DNA of 40,478 nt, from the sequence record PQ476010.1; one strand, written 5' to 3'. The notes under the pieces were generated by a model that searched no databases, was not told the origin of the DNA, and was given only the letters and a program-made list of their open reading frames with translations. Both the position numbers and the translations under genes were made by a program. Of the stretch, positions 1 through 8,938 are shown piece after piece. The stretch's first letter is position 1. Every line of letters begins with the position of its first letter. This DNA is from Escherichia phage PhiNW-B1.

Positions 1-264
1 ATGACGCAGATGGACTTAGAGAAGTTCCTCTTGATGCTAGATACTGAACGTGCTCGACTCATGCTGCAAGACCTGCGGGATGACACTAAGCGTTCACCTC
101 AGCTTTACAACGCCATTGAGAAGCTACTGGCTCGTCACAACTTCGTGCTAAGCAAGGTGTCTGTCGACGAGAAGACTCTGGCTGATATGGAGGCCCTGAA
201 CGCAGAGTACGATAAGGTGCTCTCGGCTACGGAAGATAATGACACCGGGTATGGTGTTCAATAA
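1..264 (+). CDS. 18: DNA packaging protein A / small terminase subunit (T7 gp18-like)
   Basis: 87-aa ORF; motif LxMLDT...RSPQLYNAIEKLL resembles T7 gp18 by recall; ATG at window position 1. Confidence 0.85.
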   Translation: MTQMDLEKFLLMLDTERARLMLQDLRDDTKRSPQLYNAIEKLLARHNFVLSKVSVDEKTLADMEALNAEYDKVLSATEDNDTGYGVQ

Positions 265-267
265 GTG

Positions 268-312
268 TTAGACTCAAGGTCATTACTGTATGTAGTGGCC
301 TTTATGGTTAAC
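268..312 (+). promoter_or_regulatory. conserved hairpin element (AAGGTCA / TGGCCTT arms), candidate RNase III processing site upstream of 18.5
   Basis: arms 276-282 and 296-302 pair with one G-U wobble; same element recurs at 5472, 9264 and 16633. Confidence 0.4.
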
Positions 313-366
313 ACTAACTAGTGGAGGAGACTCTACGTGAAAATCTGATAAACCGGGAGGGCAACT

Positions 367-810
367 ATGCTCGAATTTTTAAAGAGAGCGGCTCCGTGGT
401 TACTTGCAGCAGTGATGTTTGCTGGTGGCTACCACACCGCTAACAATAAGTGGGAGGCTAAGGTAAATGCAGAATACACCTCGAATCTTAAGGCATCGGA
501 AGATACAAGGCTTGCTGTCCAAGCTGAAGTCAACAAAGTGTCCAAACGGTTTCAGGACGAAATGTCCTCGCTGGAAGGCAGCACTGATAGGATTATTGCT
601 GACCTTAAGTCTGACAATAAGCGGTTGCGCATCCGAGTCAAACCAACGAGTGGAACCACGCAAAGTGACGGTCGATGCGTCATTGATGATTACGCCGAAC
701 TTGACGAACGAGATGCTAAACGTCTTATCTCCATCGGACTGAAAGGAGACGCTTGGATTAAAGCACTACAGGACACTGTGAGATCATTGCAGCAAGATAA
801 GGAGAAATAA
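367..810 (+). CDS. 18.5: i-spanin (Rz-like, T7 gp18.5-like)
   Basis: 147-aa ORF with N-terminal hydrophobic segment; position after gene 18; RBS GGGAGGG upstream. Confidence 0.8.
   Translation: MLEFLKRAAPWLLAAVMFAGGYHTANNKWEAKVNAEYTSNLKASEDTRLAVQAEVNKVSKRFQDEMSSLEGSTDRIIADLKSDNKRLRIRVKPTSGTTQSDGRCVIDDYAELDERDAKRLISIGLKGDAWIKALQDTVRSLQQDKEK
467..742 (+). CDS. 18.7: o-spanin (Rz1-like lipoprotein, gp18.7-like) embedded in +1 frame of 18.5; true start uncertain
   Basis: ORF wholly inside 18.5 in another frame; lipobox-like LTISGC preceded by hydrophobic stretch ALIGLLLTLSL; N-terminal 35 aa before signal is atypical so start may be internal or non-canonical. Confidence 0.5.
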   Translation: MQNTPRILRHRKIQGLLSKLKSTKCPNGFRTKCPRWKAALIGLLLTLSLTISGCASESNQRVEPRKVTVDASLMITPNLTNEMLNVLSPSD

Positions 811-1196
811 TGCTAACCGACTTTACTTACTCAGATGGGAAGTTGTTCAGGAAGGGACGCGAAGTCGGCTCAATGGACAACCACGGGTATCTAAGGACTA
901 CGGTCAACTACCGTAAGTATCTCGTACACCGTCTAATCTACAAGCTACACAACCCTGAGTTCGACCTTGAGTCAGACCTCGTTATTGACCACATCAACCG
1001 CGACCGAACAGACAACAGGATTGAAAACCTTCGGGCTGTGACTAAGGCTGAAAACAACAGGAACAGGGACCTACCGAGAGGCGTGTCTTATTGCAAACAG
1101 ACCGGGAAGTGGAAGGCTATCCAACCTCGCTGGCTCGGTCGATTTGATACTGAACAGGAGGCCATAGATGCAGTTAACGCCGCAAGAGCGGAATGA
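810..1196 (+). CDS. HNH homing endonuclease with C-terminal AP2-like DNA-binding region
   Basis: motif [28 protein letters not shown] (HNH); C-terminal GVSY...WKA...LGRF..EQEAIDA; RBS AAGGAG; ATG overlaps 18.5 stop (ATAATG). Confidence 0.8.
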
Positions 1197-2931
1197 GGCA
1201 GTAACCAATCGGATGAAAGAAGACTTCGTGTTCTTCTTATTTGTCCTCTGGAAAGCACTTAGCCTACCAGTACCAACCAGATGCCAGATAGATATGGCCC
1301 GTAAGCTCTCCGCTGGGGACAACAGGCGCTTCATCCTACAGGCGTTCCGTGGTATAGGGAAGTCCTTCATTACGTGTGCCTTCGTGGTCTGGAAGCTATG
1401 GAATAACCCAGACTTGAAGTTCATGATTGTGTCGGCCTCAAAGGAACGAGCCGATGCTAACTCCATCTTCATCAAGCGAATCATCGACCTCATGCCTCAG
1501 CTTCGGGAACTCAAACCTAAGCAGGGGCAGCGAGATGCGGTTATCAGCTTCGACGTTGGACCAGCCAAGCCAGACCACTCACCTTCGGTTAAGTCCGTTG
1601 GTATCACTGGTCAGTTGACTGGTAGCCGTGCTGACATCCTGATTGCCGATGACGTGGAGGTTCCGAACAACTCAGCGACTCAGGCTGCCCGAGACCGTCT
1701 GTCAGAGCTTGTGAAAGAGTTCGACGCTATCCTGAAGCCGGGAGGTACAATCATCTATCTGGGTACTCCTCAGAACGAGATGACCTTGTATCGTGAGCTG
1801 GAAGGCCGTGGGTACACCACTACTATCTGGCCTGCTCGTTATCCACGCGACAGGAAGGACTGGCAGTCTTACGGCGACCGTCTGACTCCTATGCTTCAGG
1901 CAGAGCTTGAAGAGGACCCTGAGTCCTTCTACTGGCGTCCTACCGATGAAGTACGATTCGATGATACGGACCTGAAGGAACGTGAGCTGTCCTATGGTAA
2001 AGCTGGCTTCGCTCTACAGTTCATGCTTAACCCTAACCTAAGTGATGCCGAGAAGTACCCTCTGAAGCTCCGTGACCTTATCGTAGCAGACTTGGACCCA
2101 GCGTCTAGCCCAATGGTCTACCAATGGCTTCCTAACCCTCAGAACAAGCGTGAGGACGTTCCTAACGTTGGACTCATGGGTGACTCATACCACACGTATC
2201 AGACTGTAGGTTCTGCCTTCAGTTCGTACACCCAGAAGATTCTGGTCATTGACCCTAGTGGTCGTGGTAAGGATGAAACTGGCTATGCGGTACTGTATCA
2301 GCTCAACGGCTACATCTTCGCTATGGAAGTTGGTGGTATGCGTGGTGGTTATGAAGACTCTACGCTGGAAGCACTAGCTAAGATTGGTCGTAAGTGGAAG
2401 GTCAACGAATACGTCATTGAGGGTAACTTCGGCGATGGTATGTACCTTGAGCTATTCAAGCCTGTAGCGGCCCGTATCCATCCTGCTGCTGTAACTGAAG
2501 TGAAGAGTAAGGGTCAGAAAGAACTCCGCATCTGTGACGTTCTGGAGCCTATCATGGGGTCTCACCGACTTATCGTTAACGCTGCTGCTATCGTCCAAGA
2601 CTACCAGTCAGCCTCTGATAAGGATGGTGTGCGTAACCCTATCTACTCTCTCTTCTACCAGATGACCCGTATCTCTCGTGAACGTGGAGCCTTGGCACAC
2701 GATGACCGACTTGATGCGCTGGCTATCGGTGTACAGTTCTTCGTTGAGTCGATGGCTAAGGATGCCAACAAAGGCGAACGTGAAGTCACTGAGGAGTGGC
2801 TGGAGGAACAGATGGAGAACCCACGGAAAGGCTTCGAGTCCATCCACACTGAGTTCTGGGACAATGGGGTCCGGGTGACTCACGATACGGACGACGAGCT
2901 GGGACTAGGGTCATACGTTACGTTCCACTAG
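1168..2931 (+). CDS. 19: DNA maturase B / large terminase subunit (T7 gp19-like)
   Basis: 587 aa; strong similarity by recall to T7 gp19 ([49 protein letters not shown]); RBS AGGAGG 6 nt upstream. Confidence 0.95.
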
Positions 2932-2940
2932 CTTAATGAA

Positions 2941-2989
2941 TAACTATAGGTGAAAACTGCATGAATACGCAGTTAGTAACCTATAGTTA
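2941..2989 (+). repeat. 49-nt palindrome (11-bp perfect outer stem TAACTATAGGT/ACCTATAGTTA with nested 6-bp stem) immediately after gene 19
   Basis: arms 2941-2951 and 2979-2989 are exact reverse complements; inner AACTGC/GCAGTT 2954-2959 and 2970-2975. Confidence 0.6.
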
Positions 2990-3025
2990 CTACCAGTCTA
3001 ACCTACTGTTTTACAAGGAGTTTGG

Positions 3026-3048
3026 ACTTAACTATCACTATAGGGAAG
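3026..3048 (+). promoter_or_regulatory. phage RNAP promoter (phiOR-like), +1 G at 3043
   Basis: ACTTAACTATCACTATAGGGAAG matches the 23-bp consensus repeated 11 times in the window; located between gene 19 and 19.5 as phiOR is in T7. Confidence 0.75.
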
Positions 3049-3227
3049 ACCCCCGGTTACTTATAGTATTACTGTAGTGAATATACATATGCAGACTTTA
3101 TGCAAGACCTTAGGAGGCAGACTCCGAGTTCTTACCTAAGGCTTGCACCGATGGAAGGAGGTGATATTAATCATAATACCTCCAATACAGATAGTCACAG
3201 ACCATAGATACAGGAGGTATGTAGCAT

Positions 3228-3386
3228 ATGGCAAAGACCAAAGCTGTACTTAAAGCTCTGGCGACCAATCGAGCTACATACAGGTTTCTTGCTGCTGTTC
3301 TACTTGCTGCTGGCGTTACTGCTGGAAGTCAGTGGGTCGGGTGGGTCGAGACTCTCATATGTTCTCTGGTGTCTGAGTGTCATTAA
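3228..3386 (+). CDS. 19.5: small membrane protein (gp19.5-like)
   Basis: 52-codon ORF MAKTKAVLKALATNRATYRFLAAVLLAAGVTAGSQWVGWV...; RBS CAGGAGG 9 nt upstream; below the ORF-track size cutoff. Confidence 0.5.
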   Translation: MAKTKAVLKALATNRATYRFLAAVLLAAGVTAGSQWVGWVETLICSLVSECH

Positions 3387-3421
3387 CGCCGTAATGGTAA
3401 CAATCAACGAAAGGAGGTAGT

Positions 3422-3490
3422 ATGGACGAAGAGTCTTACGGTTCGTTCTCTGAAGAGGACTATAAGACGGAGTGGGAATACGCACATTGA
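3422..3490 (+). CDS. 22-codon acidic mini-ORF (MDEESYGSFSEEDYKTEWEYAH), existence uncertain
   Basis: strong RBS AAGGAGG 4 nt upstream of ATG; no homolog recalled. Confidence 0.2.
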   Translation: MDEESYGSFSEEDYKTEWEYAH

Positions 3491-3494
3491 AGAC

Positions 3495-3535
3495 CTAAGG
3501 TCAGTTCATAGCTGACGCTACTCTACTGACCTTAG
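3495..3535 (+). promoter_or_regulatory. hairpin (10-bp perfect stem CTAAGGTCAG/CTGACCTTAG) downstream of 19.5
   Basis: arms 3495-3504 and 3526-3535 are exact reverse complements, 21-nt loop. Confidence 0.4.
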
Positions 3536-3610
3536 CTACTGTAGTCAAGGACTTTAGGTAACACCTTAAGAGAAGCTCACTTAGTGTCATCCTACTTATT
3601 GGTCTATCCT

Positions 3611-3650
3611 AGTGTCGCCTGACCTACGGTCCTTGACCTACAGTGGCTGT
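3611..3650 (+). repeat. short-repeat array (3 copies of GRCCTACRGT) on the right side of the terminal repeat (SRR-like)
   Basis: GACCTACGGT 3611-3620, GACCTACAGT 3625-3634, GGCCTACAGT 3641-3650. Confidence 0.8.
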
Positions 3651-3698
3651 GGCCTACAGTAGTGACGATGAGTTTTGGACCAAAAGTTTGAGACCACA

Positions 3699-3915
3699 TC
3701 TCACAGTTCAAGAACCTCAAGTCTCCCCATAGGCCCTCTTTAAGTCCAGACCAAATGCCCTACCAGTTACTGCTCCTTGCAGTCACAGCCAGTCTATCAT
3801 AAGGTTGGACCGATGGTCAAGACGTTAGGTCGACGATAGGTCTAGGCTATGGCTTAGGGAAGGACGATAGGTGGTGACTATTGGTCTGTCTTTGAGTCTC
3901 TATCTGTATCAGACC
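3699..3915 (+). repeat. putative terminal-repeat segment at the concatemer junction (single copy here); boundaries approximate
   Basis: starts TCTCACAGT...TCTCCCCATAGG resembling the T7 left end TCTCACAGTG...TTCCCCCATAGG by recall; flanked by short-repeat arrays on both sides; contains TATCTGTAT near its end. Confidence 0.45.
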
Positions 3916-3920
3916 ATAAG

Positions 3921-4010
3921 TCACTAACCTACAGTCTCACTAACCTACAGTCTCACTAACCTACAGTCTCAATCATAAGACACCAACACCTACAGTCATA
4001 GACCTACAGT
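3921..4010 (+). repeat. short-repeat array on the left side (3 perfect tandem 16-mers TCACTAACCTACAGTC, then 2 more ACCTACAGT copies; SRL-like)
   Basis: units 3921-3936, 3937-3952, 3953-3968; ACCTACAGT again at 3988-3996 and 4002-4010. Confidence 0.9.
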
Positions 4011-4121
4011 TACTAGACACAAAGCTATAGACTTAAGGTCAAAGACATGTTAGTCAAAGACTATATCCTATTACACCATGGGGCCGACGATAGCTTAATC
4101 AATATTATTTCAAATTACCTA

Positions 4122-4150
4122 TTGACTATAGGTCTAGACTATGGCTTAAT
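4122..4150 (+). promoter_or_regulatory. candidate host sigma70 early promoter (TTGACT-17-CTTAAT)
   Basis: -35 TTGACT 4122-4127 (identical to T7 A1 -35), weak -10; inference. Confidence 0.3.
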
Positions 4151-4262
4151 AGCTTCCGTCAACACGACACGGCAACAACCGGATAGTGAAGACGCCTGGT
4201 CATCCCGGTTAAGTAGACAGCCTGATAAGTCATACGAACAACAGGCAGATGACAGAAAGTAG

Positions 4263-4291
4263 TTGACAAGAAGTAAGACTTAAAGTAGTAT
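4263..4291 (+). promoter_or_regulatory. candidate host sigma70 early promoter (TTGACA-17-TAGTAT)
   Basis: consensus -35 TTGACA 4263-4268, 17-bp spacer, -10 TAGTAT 4286-4291; upstream of first early gene. Confidence 0.45.
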
Positions 4292-4418
4292 GTACCACAT
4301 CAACACGAAACAACGGTGAAGCCTAACACTGAAACAGGCTAGCACGGCGACGACAGCCAGTGCGAATGCTCTTTAACAATCTGGATAACTCTTAATGTGC
4401 GCCGATAGCGACTAACTA

Positions 4419-4450
4419 CAGGGCCTTTTAGTCTACATCTGAAGGCCCTG
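4419..4450 (+). promoter_or_regulatory. hairpin (9-bp perfect stem CAGGGCCTT/AAGGCCCTG), candidate RNase III site before first early gene (R0.3-like)
   Basis: arms 4419-4427 and 4442-4450; followed by ACTGATAGTCACTAAC, which recurs at 4768-4783. Confidence 0.4.
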
Positions 4451-4473
4451 ACTGATAGTCACTAACTTAACGG

Positions 4474-4728
4474 ATGGACACTATGAAACACTTAAGCACA
4501 ATCACTAATCGCAATGAAGTATTCGTGAACACTAAAGGTTATGCGTGGATTCAGCTTAAAGAGATGAGAGGAGCGCGTCACCGTGTGGTAGTTCGCAAGG
4601 TATCAAGCAAGCCGTTCAGCAACTACAGCGTAGATACTATGCGTATAGACAACGAGACTTACCTGATAGACTCGCAGATAACCGTGCGTCCTACAGCGGG
4701 CATCTCAGCTCCTTATTTCGCTAACTGA
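4474..4728 (+). CDS. hypothetical early protein (84 aa)
   Basis: ORF in early region upstream of ocr; no homolog recalled. Confidence 0.55.
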   Translation: MDTMKHLSTITNRNEVFVNTKGYAWIQLKEMRGARHRVVVRKVSSKPFSNYSVDTMRIDNETYLIDSQITVRPTAGISAPYFAN

Positions 4729-4745
4729 GAGTGATTAACTACAGG

Positions 4746-4783
4746 TCGTTAGACTGATAGCGGCCTGACTGATAGTCACTAAC
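4746..4783 (+). promoter_or_regulatory. second copy of early hairpin element (stem CAGGTCG/CGGCCTG plus ACTGATAGTCACTAAC)
   Basis: 7-bp stem with one G-U; shares 5' GA(C/T)TAACTACAGG and 3' CCTGACTGATAGTCACTAAC with element at 4410-4467. Confidence 0.35.
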
Positions 4784-4811
4784 ACATAATTAACTTTGAG
4801 AGGATATAACT

Positions 4812-5315
4812 ATGGAACGTAATGCTAACGCATACTATGAGCTGCTGGCTGCAACCGTTGAGGCATTTATCGAGCGTATTCAGTACGACCACCTGACTCA
4901 AGATGATGACTACAGCGATGCGCTGCATGAGGTCGTAGACGGTCAGGTTCCACACTATTACCACGAGATTTTTACGGTGATGGCTGCTGATGGTATAGAC
5001 CACGAGTTCGAAGACTCTGGGCTGATGCCTGAAACCAAGGACGTAACGCGTATACTACAAGCTCGCATCTATGAGGCGCTTTATAACGATGTGTCTAATA
5101 GCTTGGATGTAGTCTGGTTTGAGGCTGAAGAGGCAGACGAAGAGGATGAATATTGGGTAGTTGACGCTAAAACAGGCGCAATAATTGTGCAAGCTGTAGC
5201 TCTTGAGGTCGCTACTGCATGTGCCAAGGTCAACTATGCAATAGGTCGCCACCTGAAGGTGGAAGACATCAATGATAACGTAGTGTTCGACCCTGCGGCT
5301 GAGGACTGCGAGTGA
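4812..5315 (+). CDS. ocr: Ocr-like anti-restriction DNA mimic (T7 gp0.3 homolog) with about 54-aa C-terminal extension
   Basis: N-terminal ~113 aa align by recall to T7 Ocr ([35 protein letters not shown]); 167 aa versus 117 in T7. Confidence 0.85.
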
Positions 5316-5464
5316 TGGTAACTTATGGTCTCTGCCAGCACCACGTCGCCAACGCCCGGCTTATGGTCAAGACCGGGCGGTTAACCCATGATGAGACTAT
5401 GCGTCTCCTGAAGGTGGTCTACAAGCGCCGCAAGCGCATACACGACAGTTTGCACGCTGAGTGA
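5315..5464 (+). CDS. hypothetical small basic protein (49 aa)
   Basis: ATG overlaps ocr stop (TGATG); [49 protein letters not shown]; below track cutoff. Confidence 0.4.
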   Translation: MVTYGLCQHHVANARLMVKTGRLTHDETMRLLKVVYKRRKRIHDSLHAE

Positions 5465-5471
5465 TAAACGA

Positions 5472-5496
5472 GAGGTCACTACTGATAGGTGGCCTC
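5472..5496 (+). promoter_or_regulatory. hairpin GAGGTCAC / GTGGCCTC, member of the AGGTCA/TGGCCT hairpin family
   Basis: arms 5472-5479 and 5489-5496 pair with one G-U wobble. Confidence 0.35.
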
Positions 5497-5530
5497 AAAG
5501 ATTACCACTTACATTGATAGGAGAATTACT

Positions 5531-5698
5531 ATGAAATTTACAATCATCGCACTTTACGTAACCATTATTCTATCTTGGCTTACTGCGGTGCTCACTGATG
5601 GTAACGCATTACGACTGGGCTGGCTGGCAGTGGACATTATATTCTCTCCGGTAGGTGTCGTGCGCGGTATCTTGATGTGGATTGGACTGGCAGGATAA
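5531..5698 (+). CDS. small hydrophobic early protein (56 aa, predicted membrane)
   Basis: ATG 5531 preceded by AGGAGA 6 nt upstream; track ORF 5489 begins at a GTG without RBS. Confidence 0.5.
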   Translation: MKFTIIALYVTIILSWLTAVLTDGNALRLGWLAVDIIFSPVGVVRGILMWIGLAG

Positions 5699-5701
5699 AC
5701 T

Positions 5702-5899
5702 ATGAGTCTTGCACTATTGATAGCCATAGGCTATGGACTTATCGCCTACGTGCTGGTGAGAGACATCAACAAAGCGCGTAAAGTCTACAAATTCAACTAT
5801 GTACGTCTGGGCCGCTGGACTGTACGTCAACCTAACGGACGATTCATGCGCAACTTAGCGAACGTCTGGGATATAGCAACTATTGGGAGCAAACTGTAA
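5702..5899 (+). CDS. small early protein with N-terminal transmembrane helix (65 aa)
   Basis: MSLALLIAIGYGLIAYVLV hydrophobic N-terminus; tightly packed after previous gene. Confidence 0.5.
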   Translation: MSLALLIAIGYGLIAYVLVRDINKARKVYKFNYVRLGRWTVRQPNGRFMRNLANVWDIATIGSKL

Positions 5900-6159
5900 T
5901 GAAAACCGTATACATTAACAAACCATCTAGCCATAGCCGTGTAGAGCAAATAGAGCGTGACATGTTCTTACATCGCCGCATGAGGGCTGAGGGCCATAAG
6001 TACGAACTGATGAGTCTGGCGTTTGGTGGACGACCGATCACTGACGATGGTAAACTTTTAGTCTCAGGCTGGAAGGCGATAGACCAACGGTCAACCATCA
6101 AGCACACGACTCACGGTGACTTCAGCCATCTCCACGCTAACCCACTGATATGCAAGTGA
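5899..6159 (+). CDS. hypothetical early protein (86 aa)
   Basis: ATG overlaps previous stop (TAATG); no homolog recalled. Confidence 0.55.
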   Translation: MKTVYINKPSSHSRVEQIERDMFLHRRMRAEGHKYELMSLAFGGRPITDDGKLLVSGWKAIDQRSTIKHTTHGDFSHLHANPLICK

Positions 6160-6164
6160 TTATG

Positions 6165-6187
6165 ACTTAACTATCACTATAGGACTC
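6165..6187 (+). promoter_or_regulatory. phage RNAP promoter immediately upstream of the RNAP gene, +1 G at 6182
   Basis: ACTTAACTATCACTATAGGACTC matches the window consensus. Confidence 0.65.
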
Positions 6188-6256: not shown

Positions 6257-8938
6257 ATGAGCGTCATCTCTATTGACAAACACGACTTCTCTGATGTGTC
6301 GAACGCCATTGAGCCGTTTAACCTGCTGGCTGACCACTACGGGCAAGACCTTGCAGTCAAACAGCTTCAGCTTGAGCATGAGGCCTACACTGAAGGTGAG
6401 CGACGTTTCATCAAGAACCTTGAGCGTCAGACTGAGCGCGGGGAACTGGCAGACAATCAGGTCGCCAAGCCTTTGATGCAGACTCTGGTTCCTAAGATTG
6501 CGCAAGCCGTCAAGGAGTGGCACGAAGGTCCAGACGGGAAGCTGTCAACCTCTCGTCCTAGCGTAGCGTTCACCATGTTGAGCACTGAAGAGAAGGCCGT
6601 CAAGGACCGCTCTCTTCGCATCTCCTGCGAGTCTGCTGCGGTTATCATACTGAAGGTCATCCTCTCCAAGCTGGTCAAGCCTGAAGGGATACCGATTACA
6701 CCGATGGCCTCCGCGATAGGTCGCACACTTGAGGACGAAATCCGCTTCGGTCGCATCCGTGACAAGGAGAAGGAGCACTTCAAGAAGGCGATAGCTGAGA
6801 ACTTGAACAAGCGAGCTGGGGCATCCTACAAGAAAGCCTACATGCAAGCGGTCGAGGCCTCCATGTTGGAGCAAGGACAACTGGAAGATGCGTGGGGAAC
6901 TTGGAGTCCGACCGAGGCTGTCCACGTTGGCATCAAGATGCTTGAGATTGTCATCCAGTCAACACAACTGGTCGAGCTTAAGCGGTACGGTGCTGGCAAT
7001 GCAGCGGCTGACGTAGAGATGGTCCACCTGTCAGACTTCTGGGTCAAGAAGATGGCACAACGCGGATTTAGCCTTGCGGGTATCGCCCCAGTCTACCAAC
7101 CTTGCGTCGTTCCACCTAAGCCGTGGACCGGTGTCGTAGGCGGTGGGTACTGGGCCAAAGGTCGCAGACCATTACCACTGATTCGCTTAGGGTCTAAGTC
7201 TGCGGTGGCACGTTACGAAGACGTGTATATGCCTGAAGTCTATGACGCTGTTAACATCATCCAGAATACACCTTGGAAAGTGAACAAGAAGGTTCTGGAC
7301 GTGGTGAACATGGTCGAGAAGTTGAACAACACGCCTATTGATGACATCCCTCAGATGGAGCCACTGAAGCCTGAAGAATATGCGGGTGAGACTGAAGAGG
7401 AACTCAAGGCGTGGAAGAAAGCGGCTGCTGGTATCTATCGCCGCGAGAAGGCCAGACAGTCACGCAGATTGTCACTGAGCTTTATCGTGAACCAAGCTAA
7501 CAAGTTCTCTCAGTTCAAGGCCATCTGGTTCCCGTACAACATGGACTGGCGCGGTAGAGTCTACGCTGTGCCGATGTTCAACCCTCAGGGTAACGACATG
7601 CAGAAGGGTCTCCTGACTCTGGCAGTCGGTAAGCCTATTGGTGCTGATGGTTTCAGATGGCTGAAGGTCCACGGTGCAAACTGTGCGGGTATTGATAAAG
7701 TAACCTTCGAGGAGCGCATCAAGTGGGTGGAAGATAACCACGACAACATCATGGCTACCGCTAAGGCACCGATGGACAGCATTGAGTGGTGGGGTAAGTT
7801 AGACTCTCCGTTCTGCTTCCTAGCGTTCTGCTTCGAGTATGCTGGCGTAATGCATCACGGATTGTCTTACTCCTGCTCGCTGCCGATAGCATTCGATGGG
7901 TCCTGCTCTGGGATTCAGCACTTTAGCGCGATGCTTCGTGATCACATCGGTGGACATGCAGTAAACCTGACGCCTTCCGGTAAGGTCCAAGACATCTACC
8001 GCATCGTGTCTGACCGCATTGAGGAAGAGCTTAAAGTCCTGCTGGTTAACGGCACGGACAACGAGATGGTAACTCACGAGGACAAGAAAACTGGTGAGAT
8101 TACCGAGCGTCTCAAGCTGGGGACACGAGAGCTGGCCCGTCAGTGGCTGACCTACGGTATGTCACGAAAGGTCACTAAGCGTTCGGTCATGACTCTGGCC
8201 TACGGGTCGAAAGAGTACGGCTTCGCAGACCAAGTTTACGAGGACATCGTGATGCCAGCGATTGACTCAGGGTCTGGCGCTATGTTCACTGAACCAAGCC
8301 AAGCATCTCGCTTCATGGCTAAGATGATTTGGGAAGCTGTGAGTGTGACCGTAGTTGCTGCGGTTGACGCGATGAAATGGCTTCAGGGTGCTGCCAAGCT
8401 GCTGGCGGCTGAAGTGAAGGACAAGAAGACGGGTGAAATCCTGAAGCCTTGCCTTCCGGTACACTGGGTCACACCTGATGGGTTCCCGGTCTGGCAGGAA
8501 TACCGCAAGAAGGATACCACTCGTCTGAATCTGATGTTCTTAGGGTCATTCAACCTTCAGCCTACCGTCAACAAAGGCACGAAGAAAGAGCTGGATAAAC
8601 ACAAGCAGGAGTCAGGCATTAGCCCGAACTTCGTCCACTCACAAGATGGTAGCCACCTGCGCAAGACTGTAGTCCACACGCATCGCAAGTATGGCGTGAT
8701 GTCATTCGCAGTGATTCATGATAGCTTCGGGACCATCCCGGCTGACGCTGAATATCTGTTCCGTGGTGTCCGTGAGACGATGGTCGAGACCTACCGCGAC
8801 AACGATGTGCTGCTTGACTTCTACGAGCAGTTTGAATACCAGCTTCACGAGAGCCAGCGCAATAAGTTGCCAGAGCTTCCGAAGAAAGGTAAACTGAATA
8901 TCGAAGACATCTTGTCTTCAGACTTTGCATTCGCTTAA
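6257..8938 (+). CDS. 1: single-subunit DNA-dependent RNA polymerase (T7 gp1 homolog)
   Basis: 893 aa; extensive identity by recall to T7 RNAP (AIWFPYNMDWRGRVYA, NPQGNDM.KGLLTLA, DGSCSGIQHFSAMLRD, HDSFGTIPADA, C-terminal FAFA). Confidence 0.98.
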   Translation: MSVISIDKHDFSDVSNAIEPFNLLADHYGQDLAVKQLQLEHEAYTEGERRFIKNLERQTERGELADNQVAKPLMQTLVPKIAQAVKEWHEGPDGKLSTSRPSVAFTMLSTEEKAVKDRSLRISCESAAVIILKVILSKLVKPEGIPITPMASAIGRTLEDEIRFGRIRDKEKEHFKKAIAENLNKRAGASYKKAYMQAVEASMLEQGQLEDAWGTWSPTEAVHVGIKMLEIVIQSTQLVELKRYGAGNAAADVEMVHLSDFWVKKMAQRGFSLAGIAPVYQPCVVPPKPWTGVVGGGYWAKGRRPLPLIRLGSKSAVARYEDVYMPEVYDAVNIIQNTPWKVNKKVLDVVNMVEKLNNTPIDDIPQMEPLKPEEYAGETEEELKAWKKAAAGIYRREKARQSRRLSLSFIVNQANKFSQFKAIWFPYNMDWRGRVYAVPMFNPQGNDMQKGLLTLAVGKPIGADGFRWLKVHGANCAGIDKVTFEERIKWVEDNHDNIMATAKAPMDSIEWWGKLDSPFCFLAFCFEYAGVMHHGLSYSCSLPIAFDGSCSGIQHFSAMLRDHIGGHAVNLTPSGKVQDIYRIVSDRIEEELKVLLVNGTDNEMVTHEDKKTGEITERLKLGTRELARQWLTYGMSRKVTKRSVMTLAYGSKEYGFADQVYEDIVMPAIDSGSGAMFTEPSQASRFMAKMIWEAVSVTVVAAVDAMKWLQGAAKLLAAEVKDKKTGEILKPCLPVHWVTPDGFPVWQEYRKKDTTRLNLMFLGSFNLQPTVNKGTKKELDKHKQESGISPNFVHSQDGSHLRKTVVHTHRKYGVMSFAVIHDSFGTIPADAEYLFRGVRETMVETYRDNDVLLDFYEQFEYQLHESQRNKLPELPKKGKLNIEDILSSDFAFA

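Follow-up and report, generated by a model that had tools for sequence, protein, structure and literature searches.

Concatemer junctions in the T7 group

In T7, as in T3 and K11, the joint between successive genomes of a concatemer follows a single layout, comprising an array termed SRR, a terminal repeat of 160 bp, a class II pause site, and a second array termed SRL. The names SRR and SRL reportedly go back to Dunn and Studier in 1983. The unit of the T7 arrays is CCTAAAG, with two copies in the 110 bases that precede the right repeat, eight in the 175 bases that follow the left one, and three inside the repeat itself. At the right edge of the repeat, all three phages share the same register, in which ...GTGTCCCT is followed immediately by the pause signal ATCTGTT (...GTCCCT, then ATCTGTT), and the K11 record annotates positions 180–188 as 'concatemeric junction'. 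Polymerase pausing and the roles of pacB and pacC have been described for T7 and T3 (PMC3276506, PMC9860248), and work on concatemer processing in these two phages is also cited in PMC10438801.

At least 10 relatives of Escherichia phage K1F within the genus Kayfunavirus are deposited with two repeats, one at each end of the record, and for three relatives, the Citrobacter phages SH3, SH4, and SH5, the ends have been mapped by run-off Sanger sequencing of virion DNA (PMC4925675). Short-read assembly is documented to place such repeats in mid-contig, or to delete them, in T7-like phages, as described for przondoviruses (PMC10438801).

The window analysed here is the whole 40,478-nucleotide stretch of Escherichia phage PhiNW-B1 (sequence record PQ476010.1), and it differs from these relatives in carrying a single repeat in mid-sequence. 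Judged from the sequence, 3491–4020 is very probably a Kayfunavirus concatemer junction, with ends at about 3699 and 3901 and one repeat copy collapsed. Test junctions were rebuilt from the ends of K1F and SH3 by joining right-end unique DNA, one repeat, and left-end unique DNA; 3493–4270 aligns with both rebuilt joints end to end and without rearrangement, which upholds the proposal of a preliminary description that the window contains a concatemer junction.

The phage and its gene order

PhiNW-B1 is a K1F-like relative of T7. A 24-kb query from the window is 94%–96% identical, over 94%–97% of its length, to phages 216Ecol046PP, Vec13, Pipis, and Mt1B1_P3; the nearest genomes are those of Escherichia phages 216Ecol046PP and Vec13 (approximately 96% identity), and no record in the collection compared reaches 99% identity or more over this query. 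On nucleotide identity and synteny alike, the phage can be assigned to Kayfunavirus.

The window opens with gene 18 (1–264, + strand), encoding the terminase small subunit (phrog_1351, E 1e-34), the ATG of which was an arbitrary choice of starting point for the record. It is followed by an Rz spanin (367–810), an HNH endonuclease (810–1196), and gene 19 (1168–2931, + strand), encoding the terminase large subunit (phrog_38, E 3e-131), the enzyme expected to cut the junction. The terminase is thus of the T7 type, with the two subunits gp18 and gp19 both recognised through PHROGs. A gene 19.5 homologue (3228–3386, + strand; phrog_2193, E 4e-24) closes the series of conserved genes ahead of the right end; in Dev2 and SH4, gp19.5 has 52–53 aa (PMC4925675). 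A long non-coding stretch, at about 3490–4470, then contains the junction, beyond which lie gene 0.3 (4812–5315, + strand), an ocr-like anti-restriction gene that marks the genetic left end (phrog_2568, E 4e-54), and the phage RNA polymerase gene (6257–8938). Gene 0.3 is the first early gene here to be given a function, and in K1F it is the first annotated gene.

By PHROG assignment, the junction therefore sits between the packaging genes (18, 19, and 19.5) and the early region (gene 0.3 and RNA polymerase), in the order terminase small subunit, Rz, terminase large subunit, gp19.5, junction, ocr, RNA polymerase. Gene order around the junction is the same in T7, T3, K11, and K1F; as in T7, T3, and K11, the junction follows genes 19 and 19.5 and precedes gene 0.3, with a promoter in the phiOR position upstream.

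The termini

The left boundary of the repeat is fixed by the first bases of related genomes. The motif TCTCACAGT, which stands at the left terminus of T7 and T3, begins at 3699, and 3699–3728 (TCTCACAGTTCAAGAACCTCAAGTCTCCCC) equals bases 1–30 of K1F, SH3, SH4, HC12, phiYIO1-1, Mt1B1_P3, and Milel; position 3699 is base 1 of these phages and of Vec13 as well. When 3680–3925 was used as the query, all four K1F records began at query base 20, which is window position 3699, as did HC12 and phiYIO1-1. The left terminus was the same in all relatives examined. Scanning IMG/VR with the first 24 bases of the repeat returned 28 loci, and in seven of these genomes the 24-mer lies at base 1–3 with a second copy 179–196 bp from the other end, which is the signature of a direct terminal repeat starting with the 24-mer.

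The right boundary rests on genomes that carry both copies of the repeat, since repeat lengths can be read from the two ends of a deposited genome. Six such genomes share one register, in which the repeat ends in ...GAGTC(T/C)CT and is followed by ATCTGTAT (in Milel, by the variant GAGTCCAT), and this shared register sets the boundary between 3901 and 3902. The terminal repeat is accordingly 203 bp long (3699–3901, + strand), is present as a single copy in the window, and has both edges drawn from the genome ends of relatives. The junctions of K1F, SH3, SH4, SH5, Mt1B1_P3, Milel, and Vec13 resemble that of the window both in the first 30 bases of the repeat and in this right edge. Alignment to the termini of relatives, put forward in the preliminary description as a check, matched both boundaries, and the mature ends very probably lie here as it had supposed, 3699 being base 1 of the relatives and 3901 the last base of the repeat in six genomes. 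Its placing of the repeat end at about 3915 was 14 bases too long; with the end at 3901, a doubling of read coverage is predicted across 3699–3901 and not across 3699–3915.

Consensus right edges are found in the repeats of Vec13 (179 bp), contig 2974592685 (189 bp), contig 2974590285 (190 bp), SH4 (191 bp), Mt1B1_P3 (202 bp, exact), and Milel (202 bp, exact). The right edge is one base short of this consensus in K1F (178 bp), one base long in contig 2700988881 (181 bp), and four bases long in SH3 (184 bp). The K1F repeat has been quoted as 179 bp (PMC4925675), whereas the K1F record itself holds 178 exact bases. Such variation among deposited relatives raises the question of whether the junction is correctly located with its exact cuts lying a few bases away from 3699 and 3901, for instance with an end at 3900 or 3905, the boundary being set by nicking and fill-in. 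In one IMG/VR genome the start falls two bases earlier and the end one base later, and the extra A added by the sequencing polymerase is a recognised source of ambiguity (PMC4925675). Against this stand the six independent genomes sharing ...CT followed by ATCTGTAT, the identical register of T7, T3, and K11, and a left terminus that is constant among the relatives. An offset of this kind is therefore improbable, if not negligibly so, and the sole realistic uncertainty about the boundaries is whether the right cut lies a few bases away.

A different possibility is headful packaging, in which the DNA would be truly circularly permuted and the T7-like segment would only mark where packaging starts, or be a relic, and no ends would be fixed. 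The record is indeed devoid of terminal redundancy and behaves as a circle; a collapsed repeat, however, is a known assembly artefact. At least 10 relatives, 92%–100% identical at the boundaries, are deposited as linear genomes with exact repeats of 178–202 bp starting at the same sequence, the ends of three relatives have been mapped experimentally, and the terminase is of the T7 gp18/gp19 type. Phage F, a relative of K1F, is moreover grouped with packagers using short direct terminal repeats in terminase phylogeny (PMC5582158). Headful packaging would be signalled by relatives with arbitrary ends and no exact short repeat, and among the relatives the repeats instead start at one fixed sequence. 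Fixed ends at a concatemer junction are thus strongly preferred, and headful packaging is most improbable. Both boundaries of the repeat are, in addition, homologous to ends that were determined on virion DNA, namely those of SH3–SH5.

The interior of the repeat is more variable in length. Identity across 3699–3901 is 93% to Mt1B1_P3, 92% to Milel, and 86% to K1F. A 24-bp segment inside the repeat (3765–3788, + strand) is missing in K1F, SH3, and 17 other relatives (0% column occupancy in the alignment), and it is this segment that accounts both for the mere 86% identity of the K1F repeat and for the length of 203 bp here against 178–191 bp in K1F, SH3, SH4, and Vec13. Mt1B1_P3 and Milel have repeats of the long form, each 202 bp in length, and the match to Pipis is just as long; from the alignment, the segment appears to be shared with the Mt1B1_P3/Milel subgroup. 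Across all aligned relatives, repeat length ranges from 166 to 231. No 20-mer of the repeat was found elsewhere in the window, and folding at the right edge of the repeat revealed no structure (z +0.8).

The likeness to the T7 left terminus is real, with TCTCACAGT present at 3699, though 'close', the word first applied to it, overstates a resemblance that is moderate: 29 of the first 40 bases match T7, and identity across the whole repeat is 53% to T7 and 59% to T3, compared with 86% to K1F. A second T7-like block is also present, in which the sequence given earlier as CCCCCATAGG reads CCCCATAGG in the window, with four C and not five. In the left-edge region, T7, T3, and the window share AAARTYTGAR-N6-TCTCAYAGT, the N6 reaching the repeat start, and at the right edge they share TSTSTGWGTCYCT followed by ATCTGTW, or in the common form ...TGWGTCYCT followed by ATCTGT.

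Flanking repeat arrays

The octamer CCTACRGT is heavily over-represented in the 40,478-base window, with 18 copies where 2.65 would be expected from shuffles; not one of 100 shuffles contained as many as 18. Eight of the 18 lie on the + strand within a single 388-bp span, where an even distribution would place 0.17 (Poisson P about 2e-11). These eight form two arrays, one on either side of the repeat. The left array, equivalent to the T7 'SRR', holds three copies (3623–3660, + strand; starts at 3623, 3637, and 3653); three copies had already been recognised here, with coordinates of 3611–3650 that need correcting. The right array, equivalent to the T7 'SRL', holds five (3921–4010, + strand; starts at 3928, 3944, 3960, 3989, and 4003). 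Here, the earlier account of three perfect 16-mers plus two copies at 3921–4010 is borne out by Tandem Repeats Finder and by the octamer positions: three perfect tandem 16-mers occupy 3921–3971 (period 16, 3.2 copies, 100% matches, unit TCACTAACCTACAGTC), and two further CCTACAGT lie at 3989 and 4003.

Both arrays extend beyond this phage. Three copies are retained in the left array of 15 of 19 relatives, and a right array of CCTACAGT is present in all, with two to seven copies compared with the three perfect 16-mers of the window. In common with the window, the Kayfunavirus relatives also possess the 208-bp block upstream of the repeat, its hairpin, and the three CCTACRGT. The T7-like order of SRR, repeat, and SRL therefore holds, as had been suggested, with T7 carrying CCTAAAG twice upstream and eight times downstream of its repeat; in T7 and the window alike, short repeats flank the terminal repeat on either side, and the left flank has the smaller number. 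The systems differ in their unit, which is CCTACAGT here and CCTAAAG in T7, and in the interior of the repeat: PhiNW-B1 has CCTACRGT three times before the repeat, five times after it, and not at all within it, whereas T7 has three CCTAAAG inside. No exact copy of the octamer was found inside the repeat in any of 20 Kayfunavirus junctions. The CCTACAGT arrays may best be regarded, by analogy with CCTAAAG in T7, as flanking elements.

Repeat arrays embedded in conserved non-coding DNA might also be taken for a purely regulatory region, or a replication origin with arrays for protein binding, unrelated to the genome ends. Candidate early host-type promoters do lie downstream, at about 4120–4290, and there is a precedent in T7, the replication origin of which is reportedly associated with phiOR (Chung and Hinkle, 1990). 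This leaves unexplained, however, why many independent linear records start and end exactly at the equivalents of 3699 and 3901, and why the repeat is free of the octamer in 20 of 20 junctions. Regulatory roles are compatible with a concatemer junction and do not replace it, and the chance that the region has nothing to do with the ends is very slight.

Right-end DNA, promoters, and the putative pause motif

Upstream of the repeat lies a conserved non-coding block of 208 bp (3491–3698, + strand) within the right-end unique DNA, which is a candidate packaging-recognition region. Its mean identity to 19 relatives is 92.4%, against 48.8% for the adjoining upstream coding DNA, in a comparison whose relatives were picked by an exact 24-mer at the terminus and in which identity near the terminus is consequently inflated. 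On the same basis, mean identity is 49% for coding DNA at 3369–3490, 92% for the non-coding block at 3491–3698, 89% for the repeat at 3723–3764, 71% for the mid-repeat at 3789–3880, 89% for the right edge with ATCTGTA at 3881–3909, and 67% for the right array at 3910–4015. Despite the selection bias, the abrupt change at 3490 suggests that the non-coding DNA of the right end is under constraint.

Within this block, a hairpin-capable inverted repeat (3495–3535) consists of perfect 11-bp arms around a 19-nt loop, with its centre 184 bp upstream of the repeat. As single-stranded DNA it has a predicted folding energy of −11.2 kcal/mol (z −4.4), none of 200 shuffles being as stable, and in 19 relatives its arms are 100% and its loop 84% conserved. 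A 'hairpin end' is reported for T7 by Chung, Nardone, and Hinkle (1990). In the window the strongest inverted repeat is the one at −184, while the best-scoring ones lie at −110 in T7, at −116 in T3, and at −112 and −171 in gh-1; T7 and T3 have weak, 79%-complementary inverted repeats centred at about −190 and −184, respectively, and in K11 none was found in this comparison of distances from the terminal repeat. Positional conservation of the −184 hairpin across Studiervirinae was thus not consistently seen, and with distances so inconsistent among T7, T3, gh-1, and K11, equivalence to the 'hairpin end' is no more than a lead. The palindrome TTTTGG-A-CCAAAA at 3673–3685 was rejected as a structure, since it folds no better than shuffled sequences (z −1.3).

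Immediately beyond the repeat, ATCTGTA (3902–3908, + strand) stands precisely where T7, T3, and K11 have the class II pause signal ATCTGTT, and agrees with it at six of seven bases, ending in A where T7 has T. The motif has a single + strand occurrence in the window, its columns are invariant in 19 relatives, and the junction of gh-1 also carries ATCTGTA. For T7 polymerase, any base change in the signal has been reported to abolish class II termination (bioRxiv 10.1101/2021.01.11.426313).

A phage RNA polymerase promoter in the phiOR position (3030–3046, + strand), in the interval separating genes 19 and 19.5, 653 bp ahead of the repeat, matches the consensus AACTATCACTATAGGRA with no mismatches; phiOR is annotated at the equivalent place in T7, T3, and K11. 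The consensus, itself derived from this window, has 11 sites there, all on the + strand, against 0.19 expected. T7, T3, and K11 annotate phiOL in addition, whereas the window has no phiOL-type promoter within three mismatches of the consensus from 3902 to 6168; as an accessory feature, phiOL plays no part in defining the repeat. A candidate early promoter of the host sigma-70 type (4263–4291, + strand) is proposed from its consensus match, TTGACA and TAGTAT separated by 17 bases (10 of 12 consensus positions); it is the best such candidate in 2900–4900 and stands where T7 has its A promoters, before gene 0.3. Neither intrinsic terminators in 2900–4900 nor Rfam families at E values up to 1 were detected. 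The ORF at 4047–4262 (phrog_30192) was considered as the true first gene and rejected: 17 of 19 relatives show an interruption or a frameshift in it, and the ORF shares sequence with the early-promoter region.

It is conceivable, although we would not call it probable, that block 3491–3698 is the packaging-recognition site of Kayfunavirus, that its hairpin is the priming hairpin proposed for duplication of the T7 repeat, and that ATCTGTA is a version of the class II pause signal peculiar to the genus and read by the K1F-type polymerase.

A possible course of concatemer processing

By analogy with T7 and T3, replication would yield head-to-tail concatemers with one shared copy of the repeat at each joint, and it would be this form that the assembler collapsed. 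Phage RNA polymerase initiating at the phiOR-like promoter (3030) may then cross the junction and pause at ATCTGTA (3902–3908), and the gp18/gp19 terminase with a prohead might engage the conserved right-end DNA at 3491–3698. The small terminase would recognise pacB and the large terminase would cut at pacC, with cuts expected between 3698 and 3699 and between 3901 and 3902. Synthesis of a second copy of the repeat would allow each packaged genome to carry two copies, with no sequence lost.

A permuted record and the predicted virion DNA

The record is circularly permuted and begins at the small terminase ATG. One copy of the repeat is collapsed, the sequence was handled as a circle, and that circle was opened exactly at the gene 18 ATG. 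The window has no terminal redundancy, and its last 300 and first 300 bases are contiguous in 207 related records, running from holin to terminase small subunit; this wrap-around confirms the earlier assertion that position 1, at gene 18, is no genome end. An opening placed exactly at the small terminase ATG, and not at random, suggests deliberate re-orientation. The outcome resembles that of collapsed przondovirus repeats, in which one copy is kept, the contig acts as a circle, and the repeat becomes internal, with the difference that the opening point here is exactly the small terminase ATG. Kayfunavirus records of the OZ0357xx series follow this convention too. In OZ035813 (LM33P1) the sequence starts 29 bases before the small terminase ATG, and LT594300, which represents the same phage, begins inside the repeat at the equivalent of window position 3707. 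Architecture and genus are thus both already known, and the form of the record follows a common assembly convention.

The virion DNA is predicted, by analogy with T7 and T3 and by homology to the relatives, to be a linear molecule running from 3699 to 40478 and on from 1 to 3901, about 40,681 bp in length with the 203-bp repeat at each end. Virion molecules are predicted from the sequence to begin TCTCACAGTT... and to end ...GAGTCTCT.

For practical purposes, the record should start at 3699 and include a second 203-bp copy of the repeat, giving about 40,681 bp. Left uncorrected, it would carry errors into genome length, gene numbering, and comparisons with K1F-type references, as well as into synthetic rebooting and the design of transducing particles, and caution is due with ORFs called across the junction and promoter region (e.g., 4047–4262). 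Biologically, PhiNW-B1 adds a further instance of a well-described architecture, and the value of the finding is mainly practical, in correcting the record. Within the genus, the termini, the right-end block, and ATCTGTA are fixed, while the mid-repeat and the copy number of the right array drift. Were the right-end block, its hairpin, and ATCTGTA to act in packaging and pausing as tentatively proposed above, the genus would supply a natural sequence variant in which to test both the hairpin model and the pause model of concatemer processing in T7.

Flanks of the concatemer junction

To the left of the terminal repeat lies a hairpin-capable inverted repeat (3495–3535) with perfect 11-bp arms and a fold z of −4.4. 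This element is strongly conserved, and its arms are unchanged across the 19 relatives whose junctions were aligned. A 22-codon open reading frame (ORF) (3423–3491), with AAAGGAGGT ahead of it, ends in a stop codon that is followed directly by the inverted repeat.

Further left, an HNH endonuclease ORF on the + strand (810–1196; phrog_99, E 8e-40) is flanked by the Rz spanin gene on one side and on the other by the large terminase gene, gene 19, whose start it overlaps. Of 121 related records, just 6 contain the complete stretch, and in some relatives this position is occupied by another HNH gene. The ORF looks like a sporadic homing endonuclease.

To the right, a 71-aa ORF (4047–4262, + strand) matches phrog_30192 (3e-49), and the annotation of some relatives lists it as a hypothetical protein. 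This ORF is unlikely to be a real gene, because it overlaps the early-promoter region, which comprises the host sigma-70-type candidates ahead of gene 0.3, and because 17 of the 19 aligned relatives have an interruption or frameshift in it.

Promoters and pause-like motifs

The first phage-type promoter on the right-hand side of the junction (AACTATCACTATAGGAC; 6169–6185, + strand) has one mismatch to the consensus derived from the window and lies 72 bases 5′ of the phage RNA polymerase gene (6257–8938). A scan with this consensus, allowing up to 3 mismatches, found no phiOL-type phage promoter after the left repeat (the copy predicted to start virion DNA) at 3902–6168, although phiOL is annotated in each of T7, T3, and K11.

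The terminal repeat itself contains a candidate leftward sigma-70-like site (3791–3820, − strand), consisting of TTGACC, 18 bases, and TAGACT with an upstream TG, and identified by consensus match only. This candidate is reminiscent of the A0 leftward promoter, whose annotated position is within the repeat in T3 and slightly beyond it in T7.

In Pseudomonas phage gh-1, the sequence across the repeat boundary is CCCCTATCTGTC|CCTATCTGTAAG, with two pause-like motifs in tandem. The pair includes ATCTGTA, the variant also found in PhiNW-B1.

Length of the terminal repeat

Within the terminal repeat, a 24-bp segment (3765–3788) is missing in K1F, SH3, and 17 other relatives, and appears to be carried by a subgroup comprising Mt1B1_P3, Milel, and Pipis. 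The genus therefore has both short (about 180–190 bp) and long (about 202 bp) terminal repeats.
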